Positions 39,217 through 64,000 are shown, counted from the first letter of the stretch. The stretch: DNA of 64,000 nucleotides from an uncultured Dehalococcoidia bacterium (GCA_964371095.1 CAYJMJ010000011.1:1590-65589), one strand, 5' to 3'. Numbers and translations are program-made. The notes: generated from the sequence alone by a model not told the origin.

Positions 39217-39244
39217 CGGCCGTGTCCAGGCGATCAGCCCGAGC

Positions 39245-39292: not shown

Positions 39293-39363
39293 ACGATTCC
39301 GAAGCTAAACCGCCCTTCCCCCCTGAAGCCTGGCGACTGGATCGTCGTCCACTGGGAGGTCGC

Positions 39364-46493: not shown

Positions 46494-46744
46494 TCGGCTC
46501 TAATTGTGGGAGCCTAGCTGTAGTTCCCACAGACGTTATTGACAGTCCGCGAGAACTCGACGAGCAGCTGCTTCGGCCGCTCGTTCGTCTGCTTGAGCTG
46601 GGCGACTTCGACCTGCGTCCCGTGCCGGGTCGGCCTGCAGCCGCGTCACCCACCAAGTGGTCATGGTGATGGCCGCACGCCGGATGTCGGGGGCGGCGGT
46701 CGCCGACTTGTGAATCGATGCCACGTCATAGTCGCATGTGCGGG

Positions 46745-47074
46745 TTAGCGACCGTTAGCCCGGGCACGTCGGGTCACCATCCAGGTCACCAGAACGACGA
46801 GTGCTGACACGAGGGTGCCGAGCAACAGCACCTCGTCGAATGACAGGCCATCGAGGTTGGGCTGTAAGTCCTCCTCCGTTGCCCAGCCGAACCAAACCTC
46901 GCTGACGAGCAGGCCGCTCACCAGGTAGGCCACCGTCGCTATGATCCACAGCCAGTGGGTCGTTGCTCTCCACATAACCAGCTGGGCGACGACCCCGAAT
47001 CCGATCGACATTGCCAGAAGGAGCACGAGGCCCCGAAGTCCCAGATCCCACTCCATGATGCCAGCTCCTTTCAA
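46745..47074 (-). CDS. Small membrane protein (3 predicted TM), hypothetical
   Basis: 109-aa ORF. Probably starts at MEWDLGL (ATG ~47056). Confidence 0.45.
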   Translation of the reverse strand: MKGAGIMEWDLGLRGLVLLLAMSIGFGVVAQLVMWRATTHWLWIIATVAYLVSGLLVSEVWFGWATEEDLQPNLDGLSFDEVLLLGTLVSALVVLVTWMVTRRARANGR

Positions 47075-47192
47075 GGACAGTCACCTGTAGTCCTCGTAGC
47101 GCAGAGCCGCAATGATGTCCATAACTCACAACGTCAATAACACCAGCCAACACAGGTCAGATAATCCGGAGGAGACTTTGCGTCCTCGAGTT

Positions 47193-47415
47193 GGTCCTGA
47201 CCCCGAATCCTGATCCAGCCCGAGTGCAACTTTTCTGGTAGGCTCGGCGCCGACAAGGAGGCGCACGAATGACCAGGAAGGGGTTTACGGAGGAGCAGAT
47301 CGGCTTCGCTCTGCGGCAGGACTCGGCCTCTCGATGGTGGTTGCTGCGGCGACGTACAACGAAGACCGTCGAGACTTGCTGCGGGACAGCCCGAATTCAT
47401 ACCTCCTCACGATGA
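47193..47415 (+). mobile_element. Degraded mobile-element fragment: ~70-nt segment homologous to 62925-62993 followed by a 48-codon ORF remnant (MTRKGFTEEQIGFALRQ...). Sits in a low-GC patch (47080-47470)
   Basis: ~81% identity over 62 nt to the 5' part of the integrase pseudogene at 62.9 kb, and similarity continues into ATGACC. Confidence 0.4.
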
Positions 47416-47661
47416 AGAGCGACCTAGGTTAGCACCGACACGAGCGCGCCTAGACACTGGTGAGGCAAGAGCCTTCGCCTTTCTAAACTCGCCGCGCCAT
47501 CAGAGATAGGAATTGGTTCGCACGTCTGCACAGTCGGATGGAAGACCAAGGCTGTCCCGGACCCAGAGTCAGGGGGCTTCACACACTATTCTGCGATGGT
47601 GTGCGCTACGCTCATGGGTCGTCTGGCCGGGAAGGCGCCGCGCCTTGTAGGAGGAGGTTGC

Positions 47662-47982
47662 ATGTCTCACGTCACCATCGAGGATGTCGCCAAGACTGTC
47701 ACCGTCCAGGCCGGCGCCGTAGTGTCGAAGGTCATCCACCGCGACGCCGAGGTCGACGTCACCGTCTTCGCCTTCGATGCCGGCGAGGGGCTCACCCAAC
47801 ACACAGCCTCTCGCCCAGCGATCGTCCAGGTGCTCACCGGGCGGTTGCAGTTTACGGCCGACGGTGAGGACGTGAATGCAGTGCCGGGCACCTGGATCTA
47901 CATGAGCCCGGGCGCCCAACATGCCATCGTGGCCGTCGAGCCCACTGTGATGCTGCTCACGCTTCTGCGGCCGGAGCGTTAG
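47662..47982 (+). CDS. Cupin-domain protein
   Basis: 106 aa. GGAGGAGG SD before ATG 47662. Cupin-like beta-barrel motif region GTWIYMSPGAQHAIVAVEPTVM. Confidence 0.7.
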   Translation: MSHVTIEDVAKTVTVQAGAVVSKVIHRDAEVDVTVFAFDAGEGLTQHTASRPAIVQVLTGRLQFTADGEDVNAVPGTWIYMSPGAQHAIVAVEPTVMLLTLLRPER

Positions 47983-48118
47983 GCGGCGGACTTGGCGACG
48001 CCCCCGTGACGCCGGAGTGTCCTAGACGCGCGCCCGGAGGCATCGCACAATTGTGCCATCGTGTTCGCGTACGCCCTCATGCCGTCGACCCCAACCCCAG
48101 CACCGAGACAACTGCCGC

Positions 48119-49939
48119 TTACCAACTGCCGCCACCTCCGCCGCCACCGCCGCCACCGGAAGAGCCGCCGCTGAAGCCGCTGCCCCCGCTGCTCCCCGGC
48201 GTGCTTGCAATTACGCTCGACACCGACGACGAGAACGTCTCGAGGCTGCGCGAAAACTCGCCGGCGGAGAACATCACGCCCGGGGTCGTACCGCCGTACC
48301 ACCCCTGCAGCGCCGCTGTTGTGTCGATGTCGCGGAAGACGCGCGCCCACTTTTCGACGCAGCCGAAGATGATCGCGAACGGCAGGTACTCGGCGAAGAT
48401 GTTCGCCTGCTCTGCGAAGTTCGCCCTGTCCTTTTCCGCCGTGTCGATGAACAGCCGGAAGCCCAGCACGCGGCGCAGCGCCTCGCTCCCCTTGGCGGTG
48501 CGCCGCGGCATCAGATGCGCCGTCGCCGCCAGCAGCAGCCCGACGACCGCGACTGGGGCACCGATCATTGCCCCGCCGAACCAGCGTCCCAGCAGGTAGC
48601 CGAACCCGACGCCGGCCGCGACTATGATGAGCCCGGCGACGCGCCAGATCGTCCGGGTCGAGTCCGGGCTCGCGCCGAACCAGCCGTTCACCACGGCATC
48701 GTCATACAGTTCCCGCTCCGCCGTCTGCAACGAATCCGCATACTTCGTCTTGAGCGCCGACAGGTCGACCTCATTCCCAGTCTCGAACAACCCGTCGAGG
48801 ATCGTTCGCTCGAACGTCTTCAGGGTTGCGGCGTCCTTCATCTTCGTCAGGTGCCAGTCCTTCTTGCCGAAGATCCACGTCTTGTCCTTCTCGTCGATCT
48901 TGAGATGGCGGCGCACGGCCAGATCGATGATCGTTGCTGTCACGTCCTTCGTGTCGGCGCGCTCATCGAGCAACACGCCCATCTGGGCCGGACGCAGTCC
49001 GTCGGGCGGTGTGTATTCGACGACCACTGGATCGCGATGAAACAGTGGCCGTGTCCGCTGCTCGGGATTCTGCGTCAGGTAATAGATGCTGGTATACGTG
49101 CGGTCCCGTCCGGTGCGCCACCAGCCGTACAACAACGCAGCGAGCCCGATCACCAGCAGCACGCCCGCCACGATGAGGATCGCCGGCTCGAACGAGAAGT
49201 ACCGCTCGAACGCGTTCTTCGGCTTGTCGATGAGCCGTATCTGCGGCGGCGCGACGGTGCCTTTGGGGATCGCGACCGTCACCGTCAGCTGCTCGCCGCT
49301 CCGAAACGCGCGCGTCGCGCTGAACAGTGCGCCTTCGCCGGTATCGGAAACGAGGCTCCGGCACGCCTCCGTAGATCCGGTGGGACCTTCGAAGCAGGCG
49401 ATGCGCGGATACACGTCGCCGGGTATAAGAACGGTGGCCGATGCGCGGGTCGTTGGCGCGGGCCAGTCTGCCCCGTTGACGTTCCAGTACAGCTCGTCGT
49501 GATCTGTGAACGCGTTGAGCGCGTCGGTGATCCGGTACGTGATCCGGTACGACTGCTTGCCGCTGATCGTGCGATTGGCGTCGCCTATCTTGAGGCGCAC
49601 GTTCGCGCCGTTGCGGCTCTGCTCATAGTTCCACGGCCTGCCCGCGGCGTCGGTCACGGATAGCGCCTGGAATCCGTAGATACGGTTACTCTTCGCGTCG
49701 TAGTCGTACTCGATCGGGATTTCGCGGAAGATACCGTGCTTATCGAGGGAGCCGAAGTCGACGTCAATCGCTTCCACGATCAGCAGACTGCCGTCCGTCT
49801 GGACGTCGATGTTCGCCGCGAACCTGTCGATCGTCCAGCCTTCGTCCGCGGCCGCGTGGCGCGCCGAGATACCGGCGGAGACCGCCGCCGCAGCCGCGAT
49901 CAGCGCGAAGATGGCCACGGCGACAAGATGCTTCACCAC
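48119..49939 (-). CDS. DUF2207-family membrane protein with a Gly-rich C-terminal tail
   Basis: ~606 aa. N-terminal signal/TM, a central TM, further C-terminal TM helices. Ends ...SGGSGFSGGSSGGGGGGGGGGSW, typical of DUF2207. Confidence 0.75.
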   Translation of the reverse strand: MVKHLVAVAIFALIAAAAAVSAGISARHAAADEGWTIDRFAANIDVQTDGSLLIVEAIDVDFGSLDKHGIFREIPIEYDYDAKSNRIYGFQALSVTDAAGRPWNYEQSRNGANVRLKIGDANRTISGKQSYRITYRITDALNAFTDHDELYWNVNGADWPAPTTRASATVLIPGDVYPRIACFEGPTGSTEACRSLVSDTGEGALFSATRAFRSGEQLTVTVAIPKGTVAPPQIRLIDKPKNAFERYFSFEPAILIVAGVLLVIGLAALLYGWWRTGRDRTYTSIYYLTQNPEQRTRPLFHRDPVVVEYTPPDGLRPAQMGVLLDERADTKDVTATIIDLAVRRHLKIDEKDKTWIFGKKDWHLTKMKDAATLKTFERTILDGLFETGNEVDLSALKTKYADSLQTAERELYDDAVVNGWFGASPDSTRTIWRVAGLIIVAAGVGFGYLLGRWFGGAMIGAPVAVVGLLLAATAHLMPRRTAKGSEALRRVLGFRLFIDTAEKDRANFAEQANIFAEYLPFAIIFGCVEKWARVFRDIDTTAALQGWYGGTTPGVMFSAGEFSRSLETFSSSVSSVIASTPGSSGGSGFSGGSSGGGGGGGGGGSW

Positions 49940-50227
49940 GCCATCATGGGATGAACCCGCCTGAGCCGCAAACGCGCCTCGCATCGACCAGCGCGCACAC
50001 GCGGGCGGTCTCCTTCCGCGACGCTGCAAATCCCCACCATCATTAGGAATTCGGGATGGCCCCGAGTGCGTCCCGGGGCTTGTCGAGCGATTCGCTCTGC
50101 GGTTCGCTGCTGAACAGATCTAGGGGATCGGGCAGGGTGCCGAACAATCCGCGGCGCCAGGCGGACTTCCTGCCTCGCCGCCGCGTGCCGACATCTCCAT
50201 AGGCGGATAGAGACCGACCAAGCAGTG

Positions 50228-52321
50228 CTAATCGGCCAGCGTCCACCGCCCGAAGGGTTTCTGCACCGGCCCTCCGACCTCGAAGATGGCGTCGTCCACC
50301 TCGTCGTTGTTCGGTAACTCATTGCCGAACTCCAGCTGATGGCAGGCCGGGCTGGCCAGGCCTGTCTTCTTGCCGGCCGACCAGAACAACTCCGAACAAC
50401 TCTTCACCACGAGCAGGCTCTTGGCGATGTCCGACGACGCTGAAGACGGACCGTGTCGGAGACGATAGATGAGAATCACCGACTGGCTGGAGATCGGTTC
50501 GTACTCCGCGCCGTCTACACCGAACGCCTTCAGTTGCTCCGGCTTTGCGTTGTCGTCTCTGGCCTTGCCCGATTGCTCGATCTGCCAGGCCTCGTGCCTG
50601 CGCCACATCCACCAGGCGTCCCGCGCCGAGCGAGCCTTGTCCGTTAGCGAATCGAACATCGTTTCGGCGGCGTGGGCCACGAACACTCCGTTCATGGGAA
50701 TCATCCAGCCGAAGAAAGCCTTGGCCTTAAACGCGTCTTTCAGCGATGAACCAGCGCTCGATGAGCAGGTGTTGAGAAACACAAGCGTCTTGTCGAAGGA
50801 GACGGACTTCTGATCCCTCAACATCTGGAAGAACGCGGGAGTCACCCAGACCACCGCGCTCCCGTTGAATTCGGCACCGACGACGAGGGGCGCATCGCCG
50901 GATCCGTCCCAGGTCAGCCCGGACATCGTGACGAGCGCCTTCACGATGTCCGCGTTCACGTCGGGGCTGAGCTTGCGCCCGTTGACGGCCTTCTTCAGCT
51001 CGGGCCTGTCGAGGTCGAGCAACCCCATGTACATCCACGATTGGCTGTGTAGGGTGTACCAATGGTTGATGTTCGTGCCGTGCGACATGACGTAGAAGAC
51101 GCCGTACCGGTTCGTCGTGAGGAACTTGGCCAGCTCTTCAACGGCCTGATCGCCGGTGTGTACGGGCTTCCCGTTCTCCGTGGCACCGAGGATCGTGTCG
51201 ACGGTGTAGCCGGCGGTTGTCAGATCTGCTTGCATGCATTCGACGCTGGGCCCCACGGCGGCCTTGAAGCTCTCGTAGACCACGACCTTCCCGCCGTGAC
51301 CACGAAGCGGGTGCGCGAGCTCGTACGCGGGCGCGACCAGCAGGGCGCGTTTGGGCGGCGTGTCCGCGCTGGTGATCGGCTTGGGCTGCGCCTGTGCCTC
51401 ATACAGGCTGACGCCGTAGCCTCCCGCCGGATTGAGACCTTCACGTCCTGGTTCCGGAGGCCGCGATGTTGAGGGCGAGTCTGGGAGGGAGCCGCATCCG
51501 CTCGCAGTGCTGGAGGGGGCAACCGGCTTCGGCCGACGCGCCGCGACCGGCTGCGAGGACACCAGCAACTCCGACGACCGCGAGTCGATGGCCGCGGATG
51601 CCGCTGGATCGAGATCCGCGCGCTCCGTCACGACGTAGTCGCCCGTCCCGTCCTTGTACTTGATGGTGATGTTGAGGCCGTTCGGGGAGACCGTGGCATC
51701 GGCCACGTTCGGCAGCCCTTGAACGAAGGCGCGGGTCTCCTGCACAGCCTGCGACCACGTCTCGCCCTTCTCGTTGACCGCCTCCACGAAGCTCTTCGTT
51801 GCCGCGGCGCCTGCGTCCTTCTTGAGGTCCCAGCGCCCCCAATCGCTCTTCAGCGTCGCCGACGACGCAGGGCTGGCGGCGCTCTTCGCCTGCCCATCGG
51901 TTCGCTTCCATGTCGAGGAGCCAGCGCCCTCACTGAACATCTTCACCGGGATCTCGAGCGTCTCGCCGTCGAACTTGTACGGCTGATCGGTGGCCGATAT
52001 CCCCTGATCGCGAAACTCGATGGTCATGCGCCCATCGTGAATGCTGTAGGTGCCGGTGTCCGTGAGTTCGTCGCCGGCGCTCACTGCCTTCACGGACAGC
52101 GTCCCGTTGTCGAGCACGAGCGTGACGGTTGCGCCGGACTTGGGGCGAGTCCCGTCGGAATCCTGGACCGCAACGTATGTCCCGCCGATGTCGGTCTCGG
52201 AGACGGGCTTGCCAGTACCGGACGGGCTGGCCTTGCCGCCTCCGCAGGCGCCTAAGACCAAGGCAAGCGAGACGATGGCGCAGAGGACAAGCCGAGGACG
52301 GCGTCCGGTCGGAGAGGGCAT
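50228..52321 (-). CDS. Large lipoprotein, hypothetical (~697 aa)
   Basis: Lipobox LVLGAC after the signal peptide. Start MPSPTGRR at 52321. No recognised domain. Contains the motifs YVMSHG and LNTCSS. Confidence 0.75.
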   Translation of the reverse strand: MPSPTGRRPRLVLCAIVSLALVLGACGGGKASPSGTGKPVSETDIGGTYVAVQDSDGTRPKSGATVTLVLDNGTLSVKAVSAGDELTDTGTYSIHDGRMTIEFRDQGISATDQPYKFDGETLEIPVKMFSEGAGSSTWKRTDGQAKSAASPASSATLKSDWGRWDLKKDAGAAATKSFVEAVNEKGETWSQAVQETRAFVQGLPNVADATVSPNGLNITIKYKDGTGDYVVTERADLDPAASAAIDSRSSELLVSSQPVAARRPKPVAPSSTASGCGSLPDSPSTSRPPEPGREGLNPAGGYGVSLYEAQAQPKPITSADTPPKRALLVAPAYELAHPLRGHGGKVVVYESFKAAVGPSVECMQADLTTAGYTVDTILGATENGKPVHTGDQAVEELAKFLTTNRYGVFYVMSHGTNINHWYTLHSQSWMYMGLLDLDRPELKKAVNGRKLSPDVNADIVKALVTMSGLTWDGSGDAPLVVGAEFNGSAVVWVTPAFFQMLRDQKSVSFDKTLVFLNTCSSSAGSSLKDAFKAKAFFGWMIPMNGVFVAHAAETMFDSLTDKARSARDAWWMWRRHEAWQIEQSGKARDDNAKPEQLKAFGVDGAEYEPISSQSVILIYRLRHGPSSASSDIAKSLLVVKSCSELFWSAGKKTGLASPACHQLEFGNELPNNDEVDDAIFEVGGPVQKPFGRWTLAD

Positions 52322-52595
52322 GCGATCGGCCTTTGCGCGAAAAACCCCACCGCCTGGAGCCAAATCGGGTTTGGCTCTTCGTGTCGCGCGGTGCCGCGCC
52401 TAGCGATGCACGGCTAGCGTACTCGAACCCGAGCATTCGTGATAGAGCAGGATGACGGCCCGCAATTCAGCACGCGGTGCCCTGTCGCTCAGCCGATGAC
52501 AAACACCATGACTTCATCGTGTTGGCCCTTCGTATACGCGCACCGACGAGTCAGTCGAAGGGGGAACCACAAATTGGTCTCGTTCACGAAGTTGT

Positions 52596-53195
52596 TCACA
52601 GTCTCCGATCGGCGAGCGTCGTCGCGAGCTTGCGCATGCCGAGGCGCATCCGGCTCTTCACCGTTCCGACAGGGACGGTGCCCTCCGCGGCGATCTCCCG
52701 GCGAGTCAGCCCCGCGAAGTACGCCATCTCGATCGCGCGACGCTGTTCTCCCGGGAGCAAGCGCAGCGCATCCCGGACGTCCCGAGCCTCGTCCGCGCGC
52801 TCGGTCTCACGCTCCGGGCCGTCGGTTACGTATGTCGCGTCGGCGCAGTACGTGCCCTCGGTCCGCTGGCGCCTGGCACGCCTCCGAATGCCATCGATCG
52901 ACGTGTGCCGGGTGATCGTCAGGAGTAATCCCCGCATTGAGCCGCGCGACGGATCGAACTGCGCGGCGCCGGTCCAGAGTTTGAGAAATGCGTCCTGCAC
53001 CGCATCTTCGGCTCCCGGTCCGTCACCGAGGATCTGGTACGCGAGCCTGTAAGCGGCGCCACGATGCGCACCGTACGCAGCGACGAGAGTCGTCGGATCC
53101 AGGGCGGCAGGAACGGCCGGGCGCCAGCCGTTCACGGCTGGCCTATTGCCGGGCCAGGGTCGCAATGGGGTGGTTTCGATGGTTACGGTCGTCAT
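52596..53195 (-). CDS. ECF-subfamily RNA polymerase sigma factor
   Basis: Region 2 DAVQDAFLKLWT. Region 4 LPGEQRRAIEMAYFAGLTRREIAAEGTVPVGTVKSRM. Confidence 0.85.
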   Translation of the reverse strand: MTTVTIETTPLRPWPGNRPAVNGWRPAVPAALDPTTLVAAYGAHRGAAYRLAYQILGDGPGAEDAVQDAFLKLWTGAAQFDPSRGSMRGLLLTITRHTSIDGIRRRARRQRTEGTYCADATYVTDGPERETERADEARDVRDALRLLPGEQRRAIEMAYFAGLTRREIAAEGTVPVGTVKSRMRLGMRKLATTLADRRL

Positions 53196-53664
53196 ATTGA
53201 CCTCGGTTGGCGCGCACGCGCAACCAGCAGTGGGATCCCGAAAAGGGTAGGCGGAGAAGACGACGGGTCCAGGTCGGCTAGTTTGCTTCTTGAGAGTCGA
53301 GAGGGAGGCGCCGTCGCCTCTGCCGTGGATGCCCTACCGATGCGGGCTTCTGTCCGACTTTGGACCCGTACGGGGGTGTACGTGGTCGTCGGACTTCCCA
53401 TGCACCATACGCTCTTACCGGTCGGTACGCAAGATGACAAATGGAGCGTACGCTCGCGAACACTCGGAAATTGGGCAAATCAGCCGGGAGGGCGGTGCGT
53501 ATTCGGGAACGGGACTGCCGCGCGGTCATCTCGATCGCATCGCCGGTTCCGTCGCCGCTGAGTGCGAATCGACTCCAACAGGCATGCACGAGTGATCCGC
53601 CAAGCCTTGAGGCGCGGATAGAAGCATCCGTGAACAGACAACAGGCGCTCGGTGGAGGGATCTA

Positions 53665-53847
53665 ATGACGCTGGCGGAAATATGCTTCATCATCGCGGCG
53701 GCGGCGTTCGTGGTCGATGCTGTCCCGTTAATTGGGATAGCGTTCCCCTTCAAGCTCCTCCCCGCTGGTCTTGCCCTCCTGGCCTTGGGACTCGCATTGG
53801 GAGCTGGCCTCGCGGCCGATCTCGGCATCGATGGGAAGGTCCTGTGA
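53665..53847 (+). CDS. Small hydrophobic protein (60 aa, 2 TM), hypothetical
   Basis: GGAGGGA SD 6 nt before ATG. High-moderate GC3. Confidence 0.4.
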   Translation: MTLAEICFIIAAAAFVVDAVPLIGIAFPFKLLPAGLALLALGLALGAGLAADLGIDGKVL

Positions 53848-54506
53848 ACCGCGGAGTTCAATCGGCTCAGGAGCGGCCGCTGTGCCATGGATCCGCGTAG
53901 CCTTACTGCTCGGCGCCGCCCTCGCTCGAAGAACGACCTCGCGACAGGGCATCGCCCGCGAAGCCGGTAGTCATGCCCGGCGCGTCACGTTCGGAGCGGT
54001 GGCTTTAGTGCCGGGATCGCCGCGGCGGTGATCCATCCGGGCGCGATGCGCGGACTGGAGTAGCACAGAAGCGCCTGCATCGGCCGAGGATGCAGGCGCT
54101 TCTGAAGCGGACAACAGCAATGCGGATCGACGAGCACCCTGTGTTTCAGGTGCTGCGGCCTGAACCGCGCCTCCAAGTTGGTCGCCGCTACCCACAGGCG
54201 CAAAGATGGGCTGGCATCAGGCCCCGCCTCCGTCAGCCAACCCATCCGTGAAGAGCTCCTTTTCAGGGCTCACCAGCATTGTCCACCCGTGGATACTGGG
54301 TCGTCTGTCCGCCGTCGAACCGACACCGGCTCCAGCCCGGACGGACGCCCCGAGATGCACGCCGCCTCGGTCCCGAAAGCGGACCATACTCCGTTACGTC
54401 AGTACGCAAGCAGACACACTGTTCGTCCGCTCGAGGACAGTGCGGAACCTCGGCGACTCCGCCTCAGACCCGTCGGGAAGTGCGGCTGTCGCTGACGAGT
54501 TCGAGG

Positions 54507-55298
54507 TCAGGCGGATGCGTGTTCGCCCGACGAAAGAAGCCGCCGCCCACCGGAGGCGGCATGGCTGCGCCCGGGCAGCCGGTCAAAGCGCTCCCGGATG
54601 AGACGATAGCACTCGCAGCTGGCGGCCTCGAGGCCCGGGCGGTCCAGCACCGTGACCTTGCCGCGGTGGTACGTGATGAGATCCGCGGCCTGGAGGGCTT
54701 CGGCGGCTACGGAAACGCTCGGCCGGCGCACGCCGAGCATCTCTGACAGGAAGTCATGCGTCATCGGGAACTCGGCGGCGTCCACGCGATCGTGCGTCAT
54801 CAGCAGCCAGCGCGCGCAGCGCTGGACCATCGGATGCATGCGATTGCACGCCGCCGATTGCGCGACTAGGGCAAACAGCGCGACGGCGTAGTACCCGACC
54901 ACCTGGCGTAAGACAGGGATCTGCGCGACGTGCTCGCGAAAACGCGCGCTCTCCATCCGCATCGCGGTGCCCGGAACCTGGATCAGCAGCCTTGAGTCAG
55001 ACTCCTCCAGGCCAAGGAACGTGAAGAGATCGGCCAACCCTTCGTTGCCGATCGTGGCGATCTCGACCGCGACACCGTCTTCCATCACCGTGAGCATCGA
55101 GATGACACCGGTATTGGGGAAGTAGATGTAGGGCATCTTGTCGCCCGGCTCGTGGAGCGAGAGACGGAACTTGAGCGGTACCGCCTTCAGGTCCGGGAGG
55201 ATGCGTTCATAATCCTCGGGCGGGAGGGAGGAGAGAATTCGGTTCGCGACGATCCGTCGCGACGCGGTGGATGTAGGCACTGGTGCACGCCCTTTCAA
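54507..55298 (-). CDS. Crp/Fnr-family transcriptional regulator (cNMP-binding + HTH)
   Basis: cNMP-binding region followed by a C-terminal HTH (MTHDFLSEMLGVRRPSVSVAAEALQAADLITY). Confidence 0.8.
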   Translation of the reverse strand: MKGRAPVPTSTASRRIVANRILSSLPPEDYERILPDLKAVPLKFRLSLHEPGDKMPYIYFPNTGVISMLTVMEDGVAVEIATIGNEGLADLFTFLGLEESDSRLLIQVPGTAMRMESARFREHVAQIPVLRQVVGYYAVALFALVAQSAACNRMHPMVQRCARWLLMTHDRVDAAEFPMTHDFLSEMLGVRRPSVSVAAEALQAADLITYHRGKVTVLDRPGLEAASCECYRLIRERFDRLPGRSHAASGGRRLLSSGEHASA

Positions 55299-55690
55299 AC
55301 CGTGACGTTTCGCGGTTCAGTGGCGAGTGCGACGGTGGACGGGCTCTGAACCGCGGCGGGCTTTGTCTGGAGGCTCCGGATGGCGGTCGCAACCAGCTCC
55401 GAGTCCTGCGCGGAACCGACCCGCTGGCCGAGCGGAGACGTGCGGATGAGATTGAACTGATGCAGGAACCAGAATCGCGCTCCCATCTGCCACCGCGTCT
55501 CAAGCAGCGCCGAGTACTGAACGGCGTTGTTCACCAGCATCACCGTTCGACGGCCCCGGTCGAAGTAGTATCGAAACAGTGCGTCAGGCCGGGTCGCCCA
55601 GTCGACGACCAGCTGGCCGGAGGACCGTCCCAGATGCGAGGTGACTTCGGTGAGCTCCACTCCCTGTTCATCGAGCAGCGTGACCTTCAT
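55295..55690 (-). CDS. Hypothetical protein, translationally coupled (ATGA) to the downstream Crp/Fnr gene
   Basis: Start MKVTLLDEQGV with a GAGAGAGA SD (the ORF track extends to 55831). Confidence 0.5.
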   Translation of the reverse strand: MKVTLLDEQGVELTEVTSHLGRSSGQLVVDWATRPDALFRYYFDRGRRTVMLVNNAVQYSALLETRWQMGARFWFLHQFNLIRTSPLGQRVGSAQDSELVATAIRSLQTKPAAVQSPSTVALATEPRNVTV

Positions 55691-56189
55691 AGCGTCTCTC
55701 TCTGGTGACATGATATTGCGGATGCGAACTGGTGTACTTCGCTCCGGCATTTCGGCTGGAGCATCGAAGACGCGGTGCCAGAAGGCCTGTCTCCGCCGAT
55801 TACGCCCGTCGCATGAGCAGCACGACCACAACGATGAGCAAGATCAGGACAAGTGCACCGCCACCGATATACATGAAGCCTCCCACGATGGGCCCCGCGT
55901 GAACACGCGCGACTACCTCTATCCGTCCGGCGGGACACGATGGATCACTCGCCGAGAGATGCCGCGCCACACCAGGCGATACACAAATGGTAGGCATCGC
56001 CCCCTATCGCCGGTCTCACCGCAGCCGAAACCGGCGTTGCTGTCCCGTGGCGAAGGCGTCCGAGGCCGTCGCCTGAGCCTGACCAACTGGACGAACCTGA
56101 ACCGTGGGCGTCTTGTTACTTGCCCATGAGGCGTCACGTCACGCCACGGCGACGTTAGGCTCGCCGCACCAGCCCCCGATGCGGTCCTG

Positions 56190-56345
56190 AGCGCCCGACC
56201 TGCGACGCCGCCTGGGAACGCGAAGAAGGCGGTAGGGCCGTGCAGTGATCCACTGTCGGTCGGGCGGCGTATAGAAATATCCGTGTGAGAGACACGGAGC
56301 AGAATCCCCCTCTCGCCCGCCCGCCCGGGCCGAGAGGGGGAGCCT
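56190..56345 (+). repeat. Copy A of a ~150-nt conserved structured intergenic element (GGAAC block, TATAGA -10-like box, hairpin CCGTGTG-agaga-CACGG, 10-bp GC hairpin CCCCCTCTCG...CGAGAGGGGG). Precedes a small ORF and the APH/phosphatase genes
   Basis: ~80% identical to 58770-58920, with compensatory changes in hairpin 1. Confidence 0.5.
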
Positions 56346-56450
56346 CGAATAAAGCGGGTGCCAGTTCCAGGAACTGGCGTGCGCATGCTGCTACTGCGCG
56401 GGCGCTTCATATCGCACGGTCATGCATCTTGAAGGAGGCAATCAATAATA

Positions 56451-56669
56451 ATGAAGGCGCCACTCACCTCGGTTGGCGGCAATGACGAAATGAACGTCCG
56501 CCTGACTTGGCTTGAGATCGAAGCCGTCTCGCTTGGGCTTCGAACGTTGCTCATCACCCAGCCACACGACCAGGCGCTGTGCGGAGTGGCAACTGCAGGG
56601 TTGGCAAAGCTGCCTGAGGTCCTTCCGCCAGATGGCCAGTGGACCGCTACCGAGGCGAAAACAACATGA
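56451..56669 (+). CDS. Small hypothetical protein (72 aa) downstream of element copy A
   Basis: Strong GGAGG SD plus AT-rich spacer before ATG. GC3 ~65%, below the window norm. Confidence 0.35.
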   Translation: MKAPLTSVGGNDEMNVRLTWLEIEAVSLGLRTLLITQPHDQALCGVATAGLAKLPEVLPPDGQWTATEAKTT

Positions 56670-56842
56670 ATCTGCGATCGACGCTATCGGACTGAGGCCG
56701 GGCTCGAGCTGCGAAACGCATCTCTCCGGTCGGCTCCGCGCTTTCTCCGGCCGCGCACTACGAAGATGCCACGCCGGACGTGAGTGCAGCCGAGCACCGG
56801 TCCTGGCGGCGATATCCGGAAAGGTTGGATTGCGCTCGGACG

Positions 56843-57850
56843 ATGATGCGGCGTGACGTCACACCTGCAGCCAAACTTCTCCGTCAAGATGCCGGCGCGG
56901 CACCGGTCGATCTCAACGCCCTCAACGAGATGTTGGCTCCGGCGTATCCCGGCCAGAGGGCCATCGCCGCTGAACTCGTGAGCGGCGGCTTCGCGAATAC
57001 GAGCTTCAAGGTGAAGCTGTCGAAACTGGACGCGACGGTCGTAATTCGCATCTACGTGCGAGACCCGTCCGCAGCCTACCGGGAGGCGTCGATCCTCGAG
57101 TTAGTCAAAGAGCGCGTGCCGGTACCGGAAGTCGTCTACGTCTCGCCCGAGGCACATGAACCGCATCCGTATCTCATCCTGCGCTGGATCGAAGGTAGCC
57201 CGCTCGACCAGCTCATCGAGGAGGGCACGCCCTCGGACGCCAGGCGTGCCGCCAGGGCGACGGGGCGTGTCCTCGCGAAACTCCAGGAGTTTCGGTTCGC
57301 GAGATCCGGGTTTTTCGGAAGCACGCTCGACATCCGGACCCCATTCCCATCGGAAGCTCGCGTGGTTGTCGGCGTCCTGGAGCAGTGCCTGTTCAGAGAC
57401 TCCGGCGAAGAGCGGCTGGGCGCCGCGCTCACGCAGCGCCTGTGGCGATTCGTGACGCAGCACGCGGGGATGCTCGACGTGGTCGAGCACGATGCGATGC
57501 TGGTCCATGGAGACTTCAACGGACTCAACGTCATCATCCGAAGTACATCTGACGGGCCTAAGGTAGCGGCCGTCATCGACTGGGAATATGCGCACTCGGG
57601 GACGCCGCTGGTAGATCTCGGCAGCATGCTCCGGCGTCCCGGCCGTGCCCTTCCCCCCTGGTTCGAGGAAGAGTTGATACGGGGCTATCGCCAGGATGGC
57701 GGCATCCTGCCGGAGAACTGGAGGCAGGTTGCGCGAATCGTCGACCTCGTGAAACTCTCTGCGTTCGTGAGGTCGCCGAACGCCGGCGAGGTCGCCGTGC
57801 AGAGCGTACGCGCACTCATTGAGGCGGCGTTGGCGGACGAGCGCCAGTAA
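56843..57850 (+). CDS. Aminoglycoside phosphotransferase (APH)-family kinase
   Basis: Brenner motif HGDFNGLNVI and DWEYA. Start MMRRDV at 56843 (the ORF track extends to 56780). Confidence 0.8.
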   Translation: MMRRDVTPAAKLLRQDAGAAPVDLNALNEMLAPAYPGQRAIAAELVSGGFANTSFKVKLSKLDATVVIRIYVRDPSAAYREASILELVKERVPVPEVVYVSPEAHEPHPYLILRWIEGSPLDQLIEEGTPSDARRAARATGRVLAKLQEFRFARSGFFGSTLDIRTPFPSEARVVVGVLEQCLFRDSGEERLGAALTQRLWRFVTQHAGMLDVVEHDAMLVHGDFNGLNVIIRSTSDGPKVAAVIDWEYAHSGTPLVDLGSMLRRPGRALPPWFEEELIRGYRQDGGILPENWRQVARIVDLVKLSAFVRSPNAGEVAVQSVRALIEAALADERQ

Positions 57851-58072
57851 GCCGCGATAAGCTCCGTCCGGGCCCACCCGCGAGTCAAGATTGGGCTGGG
57901 TATCATCGTCCGGATGCTACAGCGACGCGATGTGATTGGAGTCCGGGTGGTGCACGACGTTTCGAATCCGGAAGAGATCGCGAACGCCGACGTTGAGCAC
58001 CGTATCGATGAGCGGGCCGCGCTCGAGGGCAGGCCGAGCCCACTCGATGTCGCATTTCTATCGAATCGCGGG

Positions 58073-58714
58073 ATGGTCACGGAGGTCTTCCTCGTGCGCC
58101 ACGCGCACCAGCACCTTGACCTGGCTGGCTCGATCGGCGGATTTGTAGACCCTCCGTTGAGCGGCCTGGGAGAACAACAAGCGCAGCTCCTGGGCGCCGC
58201 ACTTTCGACCAGGACGATCGATGCCGTGTATACGAGCCCTATGCGGCGCGCAGTGCATACCGCGGAGGCGATCGCCCGCCACCACCGGATCGAGCCCGTC
58301 GCAATCGACGACCTGAGGGAGATCGCGATGTTCCGCGACGCACCTCAACACCTTTCGTCACTCGAATTCATGGGTACGGAGGCGCTGGCGACGCTGCGCC
58401 AGCGTTTCATCATCGAGAGATCGTGGGACGTCTACCCCTACTCGGAATCGAGCGCCGAGTTCCGGCGCCGCGTCATCAACGTCATCGAGACGATCATCAG
58501 CGACCATGCCGGCCGGCGAGTCGCCGTGGTCTGTCATGGCGGCGTGATCAACGCCTACGTCAGCCACGTGATCGGCTCGAAATACGATATGTTGTTCCGG
58601 CCCGCCCATACGTCGATCAGCATCGTCGCCTCCGCCGATGGCATCCACACGCTGTACACGCTGAACGACGTGCATCACCTCAGCACCGCCGACCGGGACT
58701 TCCGCAGCGTCTAG
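58073..58714 (+). CDS. Histidine phosphatase superfamily (phosphoglycerate-mutase-like) protein
   Basis: RHG-type motif VFLVRHAHQ, C-terminal catalytic His region VVCHGGVINAY. The ORF extends upstream to 57914. Confidence 0.75.
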   Translation: MVTEVFLVRHAHQHLDLAGSIGGFVDPPLSGLGEQQAQLLGAALSTRTIDAVYTSPMRRAVHTAEAIARHHRIEPVAIDDLREIAMFRDAPQHLSSLEFMGTEALATLRQRFIIERSWDVYPYSESSAEFRRRVINVIETIISDHAGRRVAVVCHGGVINAYVSHVIGSKYDMLFRPAHTSISIVASADGIHTLYTLNDVHHLSTADRDFRSV

Positions 58715-58769
58715 GGCCTTCGCCCCTGACGAGTGACGCCGCGCCTCCGCTTCGGCGCAGGGCGTCCGA

Positions 58770-58920
58770 GGCGTTCCTTCGGAACGCGCAGACGAACCTC
58801 GGGCGATGCGGTGATCCATTGCGGGTCGGACGGCGCATAGAAGTATCTGTGTGGGCACACACGGACCAGAGTCCCCCTCTCGCCCGCCCGCTCGGGTCAA
58901 GAGGGGGGCCCTTGACAACT
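58770..58920 (+). repeat. Copy B of the conserved structured intergenic element (CATAGA box, hairpin CTGTGTG-ggca-CACACGG, GC hairpin CCCCCTCT...AGAGGGGG). Lies upstream of the YggT-like gene
   Basis: Aligns with 56190-56345 from the GGAACGCG block through the GC hairpin. Confidence 0.5.
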
Positions 58921-59324
58921 GAGGTGCCGGCGGAAGGATCCAGATTTCCGGCAAGGAGTGCCATCGCGAAACGGGGTTGCAGGGTGGGCGCGAACGCGAC
59001 AAACGCAGCAATTGACAGGGGCGATGGACTCGAGGCCACGGTGAAGCTCGCCGCGGGATCGGGTGGCGGTGCGACGGTGGAAACGTCAGGAGCGCCTGCC
59101 GCGGCAAGCAACGCCCCGATCGGGCCTGCCCGTGCATTGTGGATCTACTTGAAGCACCGGGGCGTGCTGAACGTCGATGAGTTCCGCCGGACGAACGCGC
59201 GCGGTCTGTAGAAGTATGGGGGCCGGCTGCGCGGCAGGATCTCTGCCGCTCATCACGACCGGAACGCTCAGCCATCGAACGCATCCGCGCGCGGACGCAA
59301 TCACAGGCATCGGAGGAGGCTAAC

Positions 59325-59810
59325 GTGCAAACGAGAACAACACCGCAGAACGAGCCCGGCACCGTCGGCGACAACAGGGTCGTCGAGAGAGAAGTCGAAA
59401 CCGTTCGGACACGGCAGCGCGTGGCGGGAGCGCCGGGCGATGCCACCGCGCCGTCTCTAGCGGTCGTCAGCGAGCGGAGCGGACGCTACTTCGAAACGCT
59501 CCCGGAGCGCCTGGGTGCCGTCATGGTTGCGGTGCTCAGCGGGATCGAAGGGCTGATGGGCATTCGCTTCTTGCTCCGCGCGTTCGGCGCCAACCCGAAC
59601 AGCGGCTTTGTCGGGTTCATCAACGACGTGTCGTGGCCCTTCGTGCGTCCGTTCTCCAACGTCTTCAGCAACCGTTCGTGGAGCCAGGGGGTCGTCGAGG
59701 TCTCGACGCTCGTGGCGATGGGCTTCTATCTCCTGCTCTTCGCACTCATTGCCATGCTGGTCACCGCGCTGGCGCCGCGGTTGAGCGGGAATACGGGCGG
59801 CGGCGCGTGA
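59325..59810 (+). CDS. Membrane protein, possibly YggT family
   Basis: 161 aa. YggT-like block FINDVSWPFVRPF and C-terminal TM. N-terminal ~50 aa polar. Confidence 0.5.
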   Translation: MQTRTTPQNEPGTVGDNRVVEREVETVRTRQRVAGAPGDATAPSLAVVSERSGRYFETLPERLGAVMVAVLSGIEGLMGIRFLLRAFGANPNSGFVGFINDVSWPFVRPFSNVFSNRSWSQGVVEVSTLVAMGFYLLLFALIAMLVTALAPRLSGNTGGGA

Positions 59811-59987
59811 TTACGCGCGTTGGACATCGACGCCGTTGTCGACGCCGGGGTTGTGACGGACCAAGCTCCCCAGCTCCGTCGCAGCCTCGACGCCGGCAAC
59901 GGAGCCCGGCGTCCCGCCCGTGGGCACCCGCGAAAAGCCGCGCCGCGTACATCTCGCCAACCGGCCGGCCGTTGAAGGTGATTGTAA

Positions 59988-60149
59988 ATGGACGCGCTGA
60001 TCGTAACCGCCGCCGGCGCCGGGTTGGCACTGGCGATGCTCCTGATACCGGCGGTGGCCGTGGCCACCGTAACGCTGGCCGCGATATGCCTGTTCATCGG
60101 CACGAGCGCTGCCATTCTGGCCTGCGTCGTCGGGGTTCCGGCGGTTTGA
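59988..60149 (+). CDS. Small hydrophobic membrane peptide (53 aa), hypothetical
   Basis: GAAGGTG SD 8 nt before ATG. Not in the ORF track (<60 aa). MDALIVTAAGAGLALAMLLIPAVAVATVTLAAICLFIGTSAAILACVVGVPAV. Confidence 0.3.
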   Translation: MDALIVTAAGAGLALAMLLIPAVAVATVTLAAICLFIGTSAAILACVVGVPAV

Positions 60150-60489
60150 ACGCCACGCGACGGCCGGTCAGATCGTCAGTGTTACGCGGATGAAATACAG
60201 TCATCCGCGTCGCAACTCCCGCGTATGCCGCTCGGGACGACAATGCCTTCATATAGAGGTACACACCGTGTCATCCGAGCCGTCCGGACGCGGGATCGGC
60301 GCCGCACCGCCAGGGAGACGGCGACGATGCCGATGACCGGCGGGTCGATCAGGCCCCACCTTCATGACGATGATTGCTGGCGTCGAAGCCAGCTCCCGGA
60401 CAAGTCGAGAAGCGGAGGATAGCAGTTTGATTACGCCTCAATTCACCCGTGCGGCCCGAAAGGTCGCGATCTTCGCCGGCTGGCGACGC

Positions 60490-61437
60490 ATGGCCGTGTG
60501 CATCCTTGCGATGGGCGTTGTTGCGCTGGCAGTCGCTTCGACGCCGAGCGCGCGCGCCGCCTTTACGGTCACGCAGTGCGACGGTGTCGACAACCAGGGT
60601 GGCAGGGCGGTGCACTGCACCGTCGAGATCGATATCGCCACTGACACCGTCACCGTAACGTCCTGTACCGGGTTCGCAAATGCGGCCGAAACGTGTATTG
60701 GCCCGACCGTCTCGACGCAATCGGTGACGGCGATTGACCAGTGCAACGGCTCAGGTAACGGCGGCGGCGCGACCGTGACGTGCGACGTGATCATCACCGG
60801 CGCGTCGCCAGGCACCGCCTCTGTCACGATCAGCCAGTGCGTCGGCTCCGGACAGGGGGGCGGAACGCAGCCAACGACGGTTTGCATCCCCAGTTCGACA
60901 CCGAACGACACCTCGGCGACCATCCAGCAGTGCGACAGTTCCGGGAACGGCGGCGGCGGTACGGAGCGCGTCAAGTGCAGCGTGACGCCGGCTAGCACGA
61001 CGGCATCGGTGCCGACGATCAAGCAGTGCAACGGATCCGCGAATGGTGGCGGCGCGCTGGCGACCTGCACCGTCACCATCAGCAGCGCCGGCGCCGCGGC
61101 CGGCACTCCGACCGCCGGAGCCACGACGACGGCGACCGCTGGCAGCGGCTCGGTTACTCCGACCGCGGTCGCTGGCACCGCGACCGCCGGCACCGGCTCC
61201 CTTACTCCCACCGCGGTCGTCGGCACGGCGACGCCACGCGCTGGCTTGATCATCGTGCCAAACACCGGCAGTGGCGGTGCCGGCGCCAGCCACACCGGCG
61301 TCTCACTGACCCTGCTGGCTCTGGTAACGCTCGGGTTATCGGCGATCGGCAGCGCGATCGTAATCAGGCGCGGCCACACGCTCTCGCGTGCAGTCAAGCG
61401 TGTCGCCGTCATGGGCGACGACAGTCTGGATGCGTAG
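60490..61437 (+). CDS. Secreted Cys-rich repeat protein (5x QC-G-GNGGG-x-C-V units), Thr/Ala-rich linker and a sortase-like C-terminal sorting signal (VPNTG + TM + RRGH)
   Basis: Signal peptide MAVCILAMGVVALAVASTPSARA. Repeats QCDGVDNQGGRAVHCTV, QCNGSGNGGGATVTCDV, QCVGSGQGGGTQPTTVCIP, QCDSSGNGGGGTERVKCSV, QCNGSANGGGALATCTV. Confidence 0.7.
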   Translation: MAVCILAMGVVALAVASTPSARAAFTVTQCDGVDNQGGRAVHCTVEIDIATDTVTVTSCTGFANAAETCIGPTVSTQSVTAIDQCNGSGNGGGATVTCDVIITGASPGTASVTISQCVGSGQGGGTQPTTVCIPSSTPNDTSATIQQCDSSGNGGGGTERVKCSVTPASTTASVPTIKQCNGSANGGGALATCTVTISSAGAAAGTPTAGATTTATAGSGSVTPTAVAGTATAGTGSLTPTAVVGTATPRAGLIIVPNTGSGGAGASHTGVSLTLLALVTLGLSAIGSAIVIRRGHTLSRAVKRVAVMGDDSLDA

Positions 61438-61501
61438 GGGCTGTGCGCGCTGGGTGCCGCCGAATCGATGATCGGCGAACCCCGGAGAGAAAGGATTCCA
61501 C

Positions 61502-62050
61502 GTGACGTCGGAGGCGCACAATTCTCCGGGCACTCCCGTCGGCATAGATCTGCGAGATTGTTGGCCGGGGATGCCCGCCTACAGACAACGCCTCGTGCCG
61601 GTCGGCCTTGGCGCGGTTGTTAGCCTCGTTCTGATCGGTCTGTCGATCGTCGCCGGCGGCTTCGTGGCTCACACGGTGAATGCGGCGTTCTTCGGCGGCA
61701 GTCAAGGTCAGATTCGAAGCGGATCGACGGTGATCACCTCCAGCCAGCAGGGCAGCCTGAAGCTACAGAGCAGGCTCGTCGAGCAACGCCGCGAAGCCGT
61801 CGCCACGTATTCCGCGCAGTTCACGGAATTCAAAACCGCGACAGCTCGCCCACCGGGTGCGGTGGGTATCAACCTCAGTGCCCGGGAGATCAGGCGCCGA
61901 GACGATGTGCTGACCGGCCTCGTACTTCATTGCATCGATGCGGCCGACCAGTACAACCTCGCCGCGCAGACACTCTCGGCGACGCAGTTGCAGTCGGCCG
62001 GCCTGCCCGATCGCTACGTATGGGCAGTCGACTGCGCGCCGCGGCCATGA
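61502..62050 (+). CDS. Hypothetical membrane-anchored protein (N-terminal TM)
   Basis: 182 aa, high GC3, no recognised domain. Confidence 0.5.
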   Translation: MTSEAHNSPGTPVGIDLRDCWPGMPAYRQRLVPVGLGAVVSLVLIGLSIVAGGFVAHTVNAAFFGGSQGQIRSGSTVITSSQQGSLKLQSRLVEQRREAVATYSAQFTEFKTATARPPGAVGINLSAREIRRRDDVLTGLVLHCIDAADQYNLAAQTLSATQLQSAGLPDRYVWAVDCAPRP

Positions 62051-62131
62051 GGCGGACCGCGCAAACGAAGAAGCCCTGATGCCGCGCAGGACAAGCGCGG
62101 CGCACGAGAAACGTACGCAAGGAGGTGATGC

Positions 62132-62335
62132 GTGTCAGCCCGGACGATGAAGGCAAAAGGACAGGCGAAAGAGGTCAAGGGCAACGTGAAGCAGGCGGTA
62201 GGACGCGTCACCGGCAACGATCGGATGAAGGCATCCGGCCGCGCCGATGTGTCCGAGGGCAAAGGGCAGGCCGCACTTGGCGGCGCCGGCCAGAAGGTCA
62301 AGAAGATCGCGAAGAAGATCGTCGGTAAGCGTTAG
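62132..62335 (+). CDS. CsbD-family general stress protein
   Basis: KAKGQAKEVKGNVKQAVGRVTGNDRMKASGRADVSEGKGQAA, typical CsbD repeats. AAGGAGGTG SD before GTG 62132 (ATG at 62147 is an alternative). Confidence 0.75.
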   Translation: MSARTMKAKGQAKEVKGNVKQAVGRVTGNDRMKASGRADVSEGKGQAALGGAGQKVKKIAKKIVGKR

Positions 62336-62365
62336 AGCGCGGCCCATAGCAATCGGGGGAAATTC

Positions 62366-62635
62366 ATGGGAATTCTGGCTTGGATTGTCGTAGGGCTCAT
62401 CGCGGGCGTGGTGGCGAAGGCCATCATGCCGGGCGGTGGACCTGGTGGCATCATACTGACCATCCTGCTCGGAATTGCGGGCGCGTTCGTCGGCGGCTTC
62501 CTCGCGTCCTTGCTCGGAGTCGGCGAAGGCATCGCCAGGTTCGATCTGCGCACGATCCTCGTCGCAATCGGCGGCGCGATCGTGCTGCTGTTCGCCTACC
62601 AGGCGTTGACGAAGGCCTCCGGCAAACATGCGTGA
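62366..62635 (+). CDS. GlsB/YeaQ/YmgE-family stress-response membrane protein
   Basis: 89 aa. MGILAWIVVGLIAGVVAKAIMPGGGPGG... family signature. Confidence 0.8.
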   Translation: MGILAWIVVGLIAGVVAKAIMPGGGPGGIILTILLGIAGAFVGGFLASLLGVGEGIARFDLRTILVAIGGAIVLLFAYQALTKASGKHA

Positions 62636-62804
62636 CGGCCGTGGAGCGGGAGATGCGCGGCTGCACAATTAGCGGCGCAGTCCCCCGCCAATGTCAGGAT
62701 CAGATTCACCGCGGCAACGCACCTGTGTATCGGCGCGAGCGCGCCCATTCAGACATCGTGACCCGAGCGTCCCTTAGCGGGTCAACGACCAGAGGAGAAG
62801 AGCG

Positions 62805-62888
62805 ATGAGCAACAACATAATCCTGGTAGCCGTAGTGGTGTTTGTCGTTCTTGTAGTCCTGGGCGTGGTGACTGTCAACGTGCGATGA
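62805..62888 (+). CDS. Tiny hydrophobic peptide (27 aa, MSNNIILVAVVVFVVLVVLGVVTVNVR)
   Basis: GGAGAAGAG SD before ATG. Lower-GC codons. Below the ORF-track threshold. Confidence 0.25.
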   Translation: MSNNIILVAVVVFVVLVVLGVVTVNVR

Positions 62889-62924
62889 GCCGATCGGTGC
62901 CGAGAATCTCCCTGTCGACACACT

Positions 62925-63450
62925 GGCCCCGACCGCGAACCCTGATCCAGCCTGATTGCAGCTCTCCTGCTAGGCCCGGCGCCCGCCGGCGGAGCGCCGA
63001 GGTGCTGAACATGACCGCCGGCGACCTCACGCAGGAGGATGGCGTGGTCTGGTACCGCTATCGGGGTATGGGAAACGAGCAGGGCTAGCGGGAGCCGAAA
63101 CCGGCCTACGTGGCGCTCACTGCGGCGCTGTCGGCATTCGGGCGGGACATCGCGGCCATGTCCCCGGATGCCTCGTTGTGGCCGTCCAGCGGGGCGACCG
63201 AGGAGTGACGTCGGGCACGTTCTACGGCAACCTGCGCCGCTACCTGAAAGCAGCCGGGTTGCCGCCCGCCGGCGTACACATCTTCCGGCATTCCGCAGCC
63301 AAACTCCGCCGGGACGCGGGACAGTCGATCGAGAACGTCTCTCGGTTTCTCGATCACTCGTCGCTGCGGGTGACGTCGATCTACCTCAGGCGGCTGGAGG
63401 GCGAAGCCGACGCAAGCTGGGGGAAGGTCGCCGCGGCGATCGGGGTGTGA
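62925..63450 (+). pseudogene. 5'-truncated, frameshifted tyrosine recombinase (phage-integrase family) remnant
   Basis: Box I-like RRSAEVLNMTAGDLTQEDGVVWYRYRGMGNEQG* (62885..63088) then, in other frames, ...LTAALSAFGRD... and the catalytic C-terminus HIFRHSAAKLRRDAGQSIENVSRFLDHSSLRVTSIYL (63178..63450). Confidence 0.6.
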
Positions 63451-63544: not shown

Positions 63545-64000
63545 ATGGGTCACATCCGCCTCGGCAGACTTCCGAAGACGCTCGCATGGCGCGACGTCAT
63601 TGGCCTGCTCGACACCGAGCCTGATGATGCTGCATCGATAGCATCCGCAACCGTTCGCGCCGCGGATTCCCGTCTCCGCAAACTGGCGAGCGACCCGAGC
63701 CTCGCCTTTTCCGTCTGGCTGCTGGTCAGGGCCATGACGGCGGCGCGGAGGACAACTTCCATGCCGAACTGAACCGGCTTGGCATCCCCGTCTCCGGTGA
63801 GACCTCGTCGCTGGGCCTTGTCGCGCAGATCGGCGACCGCGCGCGAGATGAACTGGCGCAGTTTGGCACCTCCGGTCACGCTCGGGAGATCGCCGTTCAG
63901 TCGCTACGCCAGACGTTGCACGAGACGGTCCTCCGGGTGGGGGCGGACATGTTCATGGCCTCGTCAGAGGACGCTCGGCGGGCGCTGCGTTCTTACTCCA
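63545..64000 (+). CDS. Hypothetical protein, partial (runs off window end) with an apparent -1 frame switch near 63700-63770
   Basis: GGAGAGGAG SD before ATG 63545. Frame 2 ends ...SMPN* at 63772, while frame 1 carries high-GC3 coding ...EDNFHAELNRLGIPVSGETSSLGLVAQIGDRARDELAQFG... to the window edge. Confidence 0.4.

Follow-up and report, generated by a model that had tools for sequence, protein, structure and literature searches.

We analysed a 64,000-nucleotide stretch of DNA from an uncultured Dehalococcoidia bacterium (GCA_964371095.1 CAYJMJ010000011.1:1590-65589; hereafter the window, in whose coordinates positions are given unless another contig is named), in which two similar short segments lie 15.7 kb apart. 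A first-pass annotation had taken them for fragments of a tyrosine integrase. Our results indicate instead, with a probability of roughly 0.8, that they are two solitary left ends, each made of a left inverted repeat (IRL) and leader, of two different insertion sequences (IS) of the IS3 family, and that both lie inside a larger mosaic genomic island whose docking site is the 3' end of the transfer-messenger RNA (tmRNA) gene, ssrA.

Two solitary left ends of IS3-family insertion sequences

The repeat is direct and spans 60 nt (47192-47251 and 62924-62983), with 49 of the 60 bases identical (82%, in agreement with the ~81% previously given for segments near 47193 and 62925) and 12 nt as the longest identical run. 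Only these two copies exist in the window: a degenerate 25-mer derived from both matched nowhere else with up to 3 mismatches, and 100 shuffles of the window produced no match to it and no comparable repeat. A distant-mode search of plasmid DNA with the left region as query yielded no match. Scanning the conserved core of the repeat as a pattern against one genome per species matched two contigs, CAYJOD010000169.1 (L001) and CAYJOD010000127.1 (L002), both from a single metagenome-assembled genome (MAG). The first contains a complete element of ~1.2 kb and the second another, truncated left-end copy. Homology starts exactly at TGG in four independent contexts (the left and right window copies, L001 and the truncated L002 copy), as fits the terminus of an element.

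The complete L001 element starts with TGGTCCTGACCCCGAATCCTGATCCAGCC... and its far end carries an imperfect inverted copy (...CTGGATCAGAAACAGGGGCAAGACCA), such that the two termini (TGGTCCTGACC at the start, ...GGCAAGACCA at the end) align as imperfect inverted repeats of the TG...CA kind; both window copies likewise begin with TGG. It encodes an 88-aa OrfA with an HTH_Tnp_1 domain (Pfam, E = 4.8e-23) followed, in the -1 frame, by a 280-aa OrfB with HTH_21, rve and rve_3 domains (Pfam), which is the two-ORF organization of the IS3 family; the orfA/orfB overlap reads CCGAAAATGGTGA, and no canonical slippery heptamer for a programmed -1 frameshift was identified. The element thus shares with ISMra1-like members of this family the TG...CA termini, imperfect inverted repeats of ~45 bp, a leader of ~80 nt, a total length of ~1.2 kb, an OrfA of 88 aa that starts M-x-R-K-x-F-T-E-E-Q and carries HTH_Tnp_1, and an OrfB that combines HTH_21 with the rve DDE core, whereas all that the window retains are two left-end stubs, 129 and 71 bp long. 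Among annotated proteins, OrfB is closest (65.6% identity) to an 'IS3-like element ISMra1 family transposase'; since no named transposase is closer, the L001 element is probably an undescribed IS. Judging from the general layout of that group, these IS may be of the IS407 type.

The left stub (47192-47320, plus strand, 129 bp) comprises the IRL, which starts TGGTCC, the leader and codons 1-17 of orfA, and is 99.2% identical over its 129 bp to the left end of the L001 element. The orfA frame begins with the ATGACC at 47269 (MTRKGFTEEQ...); the orfA remnant translates as MTRKGFTEEQIGFALRQ and gives way to unrelated sequence after codon 17. Contigs of the same population from other samples stop at 47207, 47231 and 47291, all of them within the stub, which is the usual behaviour of assemblers at sequences that are multi-copy in a sample. 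The stub lies, as had been noted before, in a GC-poor patch (~47025-47620, GC 0.54-0.62), but the hairpin that had been placed just ahead of it was not recovered, as a simple terminator scan (hairpin plus T-run) of 46600-47700 found none. A non-coding spacer of low GC (47321-47661, GC 0.56-0.62), with no similarity to the L001 IS or to any of the relatives compared, separates the stub from the cupin gene that follows.

The right stub (62924-62994, plus strand, 71 bp) consists of a diverged IRL followed by ~11 nt of the leader and derives from a related element of the IS3 family. It is 82% identical to bases 1-60 of the L001 element, the local alignment ending at 62983 (base 60), and contains no orfA codons. 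A relative from another study (L007) shares positions 52508-62994 of the window at 92-94.5% identity, right stub included, and there the stub remains collinear with the IS up to base 137, entering orfA. Identity between the window and this relative stops at 62994, so that the right fragment is also a synteny breakpoint.

No right inverted repeat (IRR), transposase or other IS piece was found anywhere in the window. Lacking both transposase and IRR, the two stubs are inert scars, and, being left ends that point the same way and share no identical run longer than 12 bases, they can support neither transposition nor homologous recombination. Miniature inverted-repeat transposable elements were also considered as an identity for the copies and ruled out, as nothing resembling an IRR occurs in the window.

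We also weighed whether selection might have preserved the repeat at two places, either as a conserved cis-element such as a promoter or leader or as a small RNA. Left ends of IS3-family elements carry the promoter of the element itself, and readout from the left stub toward the cupin gene, which has the same orientation, would be possible on general grounds. However, 11 of the 60 positions are not conserved between the copies, the gene that the right copy precedes is dead, and the only promoter-like site in our scan (47137-47165) lies upstream of the left stub and outside it. The repeat has no Rfam match either, the sole Rfam match in the window being an unrelated c-di-GMP riboswitch. Selection on such an element is therefore very improbable, and the copies are best described as the left ends of two decayed IS3-family elements, not as integrase-derived sequences. 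Scars of this type are common debris, and recognizing them avoids false annotations of integrase duplication or of island ends.

An insertion sequence end fused to a truncated integrase

Directly after the right stub lies a tyrosine integrase pseudogene (62995-63450, plus strand) that retains codons ~155-310 only. Its C-terminal part at 63178-63450 matches Pfam Phage_integrase, as the first-pass annotation had recognized, and the gene is interrupted by an in-frame TAG (63087-63089) and a frameshift near 63195. It aligns, with 70-80% identity, to residues ~155-310 of the intact 310-aa integrases of three related assemblies (L031, L032 and L033); the intact reading frame and the full catalytic domain of a functional tyrosine recombinase, including the first Arg, are missing from the window. 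The right copy of the repeat had been read as the 5' end of this integrase, with similarity continuing in both copies into a frame initiated by ATGACC. What we found is an IS left end fused to an integrase truncated at codon ~155: the alignment of the right copy to the IS ends at 62983, and the ATGACC at 63012, far from being a start, lies within the integrase frame and specifies Met163-Thr164 (...AEVLNMTAGDLT...). Because the same hexamer is the orfA start at the left copy, its presence at both places is coincidental.

These data bear directly on the proposal that the 5' part of the island's tyrosine integrase was duplicated and that the fragments, as its remnants, delimit a former integrative island at both ends. 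It would account for the right copy directly preceding the integrase pseudogene and for a compositional step at the left copy. Yet the left copy runs into an IS3 orfA and not into an integrase, the intact integrases of this clade have 154 additional N-terminal codons and their homology with the window begins only past the repeat, a complete IS elsewhere has the same 60 nt as its terminus, and island-like composition extends beyond the right copy to ssrA. We consider this proposal extremely improbable; the intact L001 element and the alignment to intact integrases refute it. The broader idea of a former island holds as far as accessory DNA in a mobile-element setting is concerned, but no recombinase was duplicated and the fragments are left ends of IS3-family elements.

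Comparison with relatives provides a possible course of events. Downstream of the stub of L007 there is a DUF2784 gene followed by integrase residues 247-310, and in L031 a DUF2784 gene directly precedes the intact integrase. From these two arrangements we infer that the ancestral order may have been cargo, IS, DUF2784, integrase. Each IS would have entered the genomic island, and an internal deletion would subsequently have stripped it of the transposase genes and the right end. The left stub would be recent, given its 99% identity to a copy still intact in another genome bin, and the right one older or derived from another isoform (82%), having first lain between the cargo and the integration module. 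The IS body, the DUF2784 gene and the first half of the integrase would then have been lost through a deletion between the IS leader and integrase codon ~155, which is why the repeat could be mistaken for the 5' end of the integrase. The heptamer CCGGCGG, which occurs both in integrase codons 155-157 and in the IS leader preserved in L007, may have provided microhomology for this deletion. One of the two recombinases of the island would thus have been disabled through an IS-to-integrase deletion.

A mosaic island at the 3' end of the tmRNA gene

We used contigs encoding identical proteins to extend the window, contig L003 representing the window lineage beyond the window end. The first-pass annotation had proposed looking for a tRNA or attachment (att) core beyond 63.5 kb. 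The window contains no tRNA, but a tmRNA gene occurs 2.6 kb past its end, on the opposite strand (L003 14449-14802), and the 3' end of this gene is repeated at 39253. The repeated part is the final 19 nt of the gene (TGGTGGAGACGGGGGAGAA); its direct copy in the window (39253-39271, plus strand) represents a distal att-type boundary. The 19-mer is exact at the ssrA 3' end (L003 14449-14467, window-equivalent 66580) and has the same orientation there as at 39253. These are the only two copies in 72 kb, even when 3 mismatches are allowed; neither a further nor a degenerate copy exists near 47.2 kb or elsewhere in the 72 kb, and none was found in the 10-kb flanks of L031, L032, L033 and a fourth relative, L035.

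The distal repeat sits 37 nt after the stop codon of RtcB and just before a primase-like gene. The sequence on its left (39229-39252, plus strand) resembles the 3' end of the serine recombinase gene that abuts ssrA in L032, L033 and L035: a 37-nt pattern composed of CAGCCCGAGTGGTGGACT plus the direct repeat matches at 39235 with 1 mismatch, residues 484-515 of the L032 recombinase match 39229-39321 in a tblastn search, and 34 nt are 91% identical to L035. Given this resemblance to a recombinase arm, a chance match of the repeat is very unlikely, and the sequence suggests that the flank could be the fossil of an arm of an earlier element. The island thus delimited measures 27.3 kb, from window position 39272 to window-equivalent 66579, and excision is testable at exact coordinates using the 19-nt repeat at 39253 and ssrA. 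Its first gene is the primase-like one (39364-40116, plus strand), whose 250-aa product, as predicted on contig L026, matches the CHC2 zinc finger and Toprim domains of Pfam. All 17 contigs with an identical RtcB carry the left part of the island. Between 40800 and 41500, several contigs from other samples end or fall to 92-97% identity, which suggests strain-level variation in this left part.

Base composition agrees in part with such an island. The GC content at third codon positions (GC3) is 0.863 +/- 0.029 for the genes in 1-39.2 kb (n = 27) and 0.775 +/- 0.029 for those from 47.3 kb to ssrA (n = 13; Mann-Whitney p = 1.4e-6 versus the former, core genes), with a mean of 0.82 for the genes past ssrA. 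The tetranucleotide distance from the core is raised over ~46-66 kb. The deviation predicted earlier for the DNA between the fragments was thus recovered, although it runs past the right fragment as far as ssrA and skips the segment at 41.1-47.1 kb, which is core-like. Since the primase-like gene (GC3 0.75) is island-like and this segment is not, the island is a mosaic and the left stub stands at an internal compositional step. The fragments do lie at mosaic junctions (the compositional step on the left, the L007 breakpoint on the right), but they do not mark the ends of the island, which lie elsewhere.

The position of the stubs could also evoke a composite transposon, of which they would be the remains of two directly repeated IS carrying the 15.7-kb segment between them. 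They share orientation, the change in GC3 coincides with the outer end of the left stub, and contigs breaking within this stub point to active IS3-family elements nearby. Nevertheless, a composite transposon has two complete IS copies with both outer ends and transposase, and these are not found here, not even a surviving IRR. The identities of the two stubs to the intact IS (99% versus 82%) imply different elements or very different ages, in L007 the right stub is accompanied by no more of the segment than its 52.5-63.0 kb part, with other DNA to the left, the gene for a 697-aa protein of this segment occurs alone in three other contexts, and the same composition reaches ssrA, beyond the supposed transposon. 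The unequal stub identity, the partial segment of L007, the lone 697-aa gene and the composition up to ssrA make a composite origin improbable, and we favour independent IS insertions into the ssrA-docked island.

The integration module and its relation to Dehalococcoides islands

After the integrase pseudogene comes a gene that we call X (63545-64000, plus strand), which is frameshifted near 63749 and continues past the window end; in a tblastn search with the 260-aa X protein of L033, residues 1-68 correspond to 63545-63748 and residues 70-232 to 63751-64239 in another frame. Beyond the window end, the order is the frameshifted X, a gene Y preserved in its C-terminal part, and an intact large serine recombinase of 515 aa (L003 12982-14529) with Resolvase and Recombinase domains (Pfam). 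The X and Y proteins have no Pfam matches. The overlap of the recombinase ORF with the tmRNA gene, at the 3' end of the latter, amounts to 81 nt in L003 and to ~80 nt in L031, L032 and L033. In the window lineage the tmRNA gene is followed by SmpB, CtpB, a GGDEF protein and DnaJ, and the complete order from tyrosine integrase through X, Y, serine recombinase and tmRNA to DnaJ is the same in L031, L032 and L033. These three are Chloroflexota/Dehalococcoidia assemblies whose recombinase homologues show 52-59% identity. The DNA past the module differs in each of them, while the side with SmpB, CtpB, GGDEF, DnaJ and a Na/Ca exchanger is kept in these three and in L035, as would be expected at the edge of an island. 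The module adjoins the tmRNA gene in at least four lineages; L035 has the tmRNA and the recombinase without the tyrosine integrase. The module spans L003 11047-14802 (window-equivalent 63178-66933), L031 3684-11824, L032 87-5594 and L033 6261-11805.

From this arrangement we infer that the serine recombinase catalysed integration at ssrA. A close parallel is known in Dehalococcoides, where the islands at ssrA are associated with a 20-bp direct repeat of that gene and encode a serine recombinase that overlaps att at its 3' end (McMurdie et al. 2011, PMC3146451). The repeat found in the window is close to the repeat primer for those islands, TGGTGGAGACGGGGGAGGG (PMC3146451). Both systems share docking at the 3' end of a single tmRNA gene, a bounding direct repeat of ~20 bp (19 nt here), a large serine recombinase (~515-540 aa) beside ssrA with its 3' end overlapping att/ssrA, variable cargo of deviant composition, and a host of the same class. 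In contrast, the six-gene module of Dehalococcoides (DsiB, the small serine recombinase DsiA, RecF-like, ParB and Mom-like proteins, among others) was not recovered: no second resolvase, ParB or Mom was found beside the recombinase, whose neighbours are the tyrosine integrase and the two proteins without Pfam matches. The window island also differs in having no reductive dehalogenases, a high-GC host, and one module with one distal repeat instead of tandem arrays. With the tRNA- and tmRNA-targeting islands that use tyrosine integrases it shares an integrase of this type near the RNA gene and a repeated RNA-gene 3' end, but here the integrase does not abut ssrA and, in the window, it is truncated, interrupted by a stop codon and frameshifted. 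The ssrA-island pattern of Dehalococcoides thus extends to uncultured high-GC relatives, with a different integration module.

It is conceivable, though rather unlikely, that the tyrosine integrase, X, Y and the serine recombinase together form a distinct dual-recombinase module for docking at tmRNA genes, occurring in high-GC, non-dehalogenating Dehalococcoidia and representing a second ssrA-island machinery beside DsiA/DsiB. It might possibly act as a resident platform behind which cargo is exchanged, with IS stubs marking the sites of cargo swaps. As a check on vertical inheritance, recombinase identities were compared with core-gene pairwise identities; the correlation was weak and not significant (Spearman 0.33).

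Several observations weigh against the interpretation of the stubs as IS ends inside an ssrA-docked island. Concerning the IS, no target-site duplication, which measures 3-4 bp in the IS3 family, was seen at the L001 element, which is flanked by ...CGAC on the left and CATG... on the right, and none is visible at either window stub, both of which are devoid of a right end. Moreover, the MAG that holds L001 and L002 was binned as Candidatus Binatia while the window lineage, to judge by the closest named homologues, appears to be Dehalococcoidia, a discrepancy that could reflect mis-binning or the sharing of the same IS across two phyla or within the community. Concerning the island, the segment at 41.1-47.1 kb, which holds a 161-aa ORF, an HD-GYP gene, the riboswitch and an S8 protease gene, has a core-like GC3 of 0.89-0.92. 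Relatives identified by RtcB (89, 81 and 80% identity) provided no empty site; synteny is lacking on both sides of the gene and no tmRNA lies in its vicinity, so this search was uninformative, and with no empty site the 27-kb boundary depends on the direct repeat and its flank alone. Homologues of the 697-aa protein (90, 87 and 80%) placed in three unrelated contexts revealed no left boundary either. The likeness of the recombinase to DsiB is judged from position, size and att overlap. Finally, the recombinase of the window lineage is 58-61% identical to those of L031, L032 and L035, which are 70-75% identical to each other, a divergence whose sequence pattern suggests either allele replacement or relaxed constraint. 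Neighbouring core proteins, unlike the recombinase, are ~75% identical in all pairs.

Cargo and other features of the region

The cargo (47662-62907) has a GC3 of 0.73-0.83 and, as Pfam searches confirmed for the gene list that had been proposed between the fragments, includes a cupin, a DUF2207 protein, the 697-aa protein, an ECF sigma factor, a Crp/Fnr regulator, an APH kinase, a His phosphatase, a Cys-repeat protein, CsbD and GlsB, together with a 33-aa ORF. Only the portion at 52508-62994 is common to L007, where the DNA to the left of it is different. The gene for the 697-aa protein (50228-52363, minus strand), which has no Pfam domain, was found in four unrelated neighbourhoods (the window and contigs L034, L035 and L036); in L034 it adjoins an intact and different IS407-like IS (left end TGACCTGCCCCCC), and in L035 it lies 4 kb from ssrA.

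Within the cargo, a 57-nt repeat (56292-56348 and 58859-58915, 86% identical) contains a 10-bp GC-rich hairpin (CCCCCTCTCG...CGAGAGGGGG) and matches no Rfam family; both copies are kept in L007. The gene for the Cys-rich repeat protein has internal repeats of 91 and 42 nt (74-76% identical) at 60713-61088, and gene callers disagreed about its strand (60364-61437 on the plus strand or 60438-61412 on the minus strand). The 33-aa ORF (62806-62907), which follows the GlsB-type gene, encodes a strongly hydrophobic product (MSNNIILVAVVVFVVLVVLGVVTVNVR), has a good ribosome-binding site and is conserved in L007.

In the core-like segment, the c-di-GMP-I-GGC riboswitch (43974-44064, 65.8 bits) is located upstream of the S8 subtilase gene (44129-45655, plus strand), and the gene for an HD-GYP-type (HD_5) phosphodiesterase (42435-43814, minus strand) is divergent from both. 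A tandem periodicity of 15 nt (AGCATCAGCTGGGGC...) spans 45536-45642, where the S8 protease gene ends and the next one begins.

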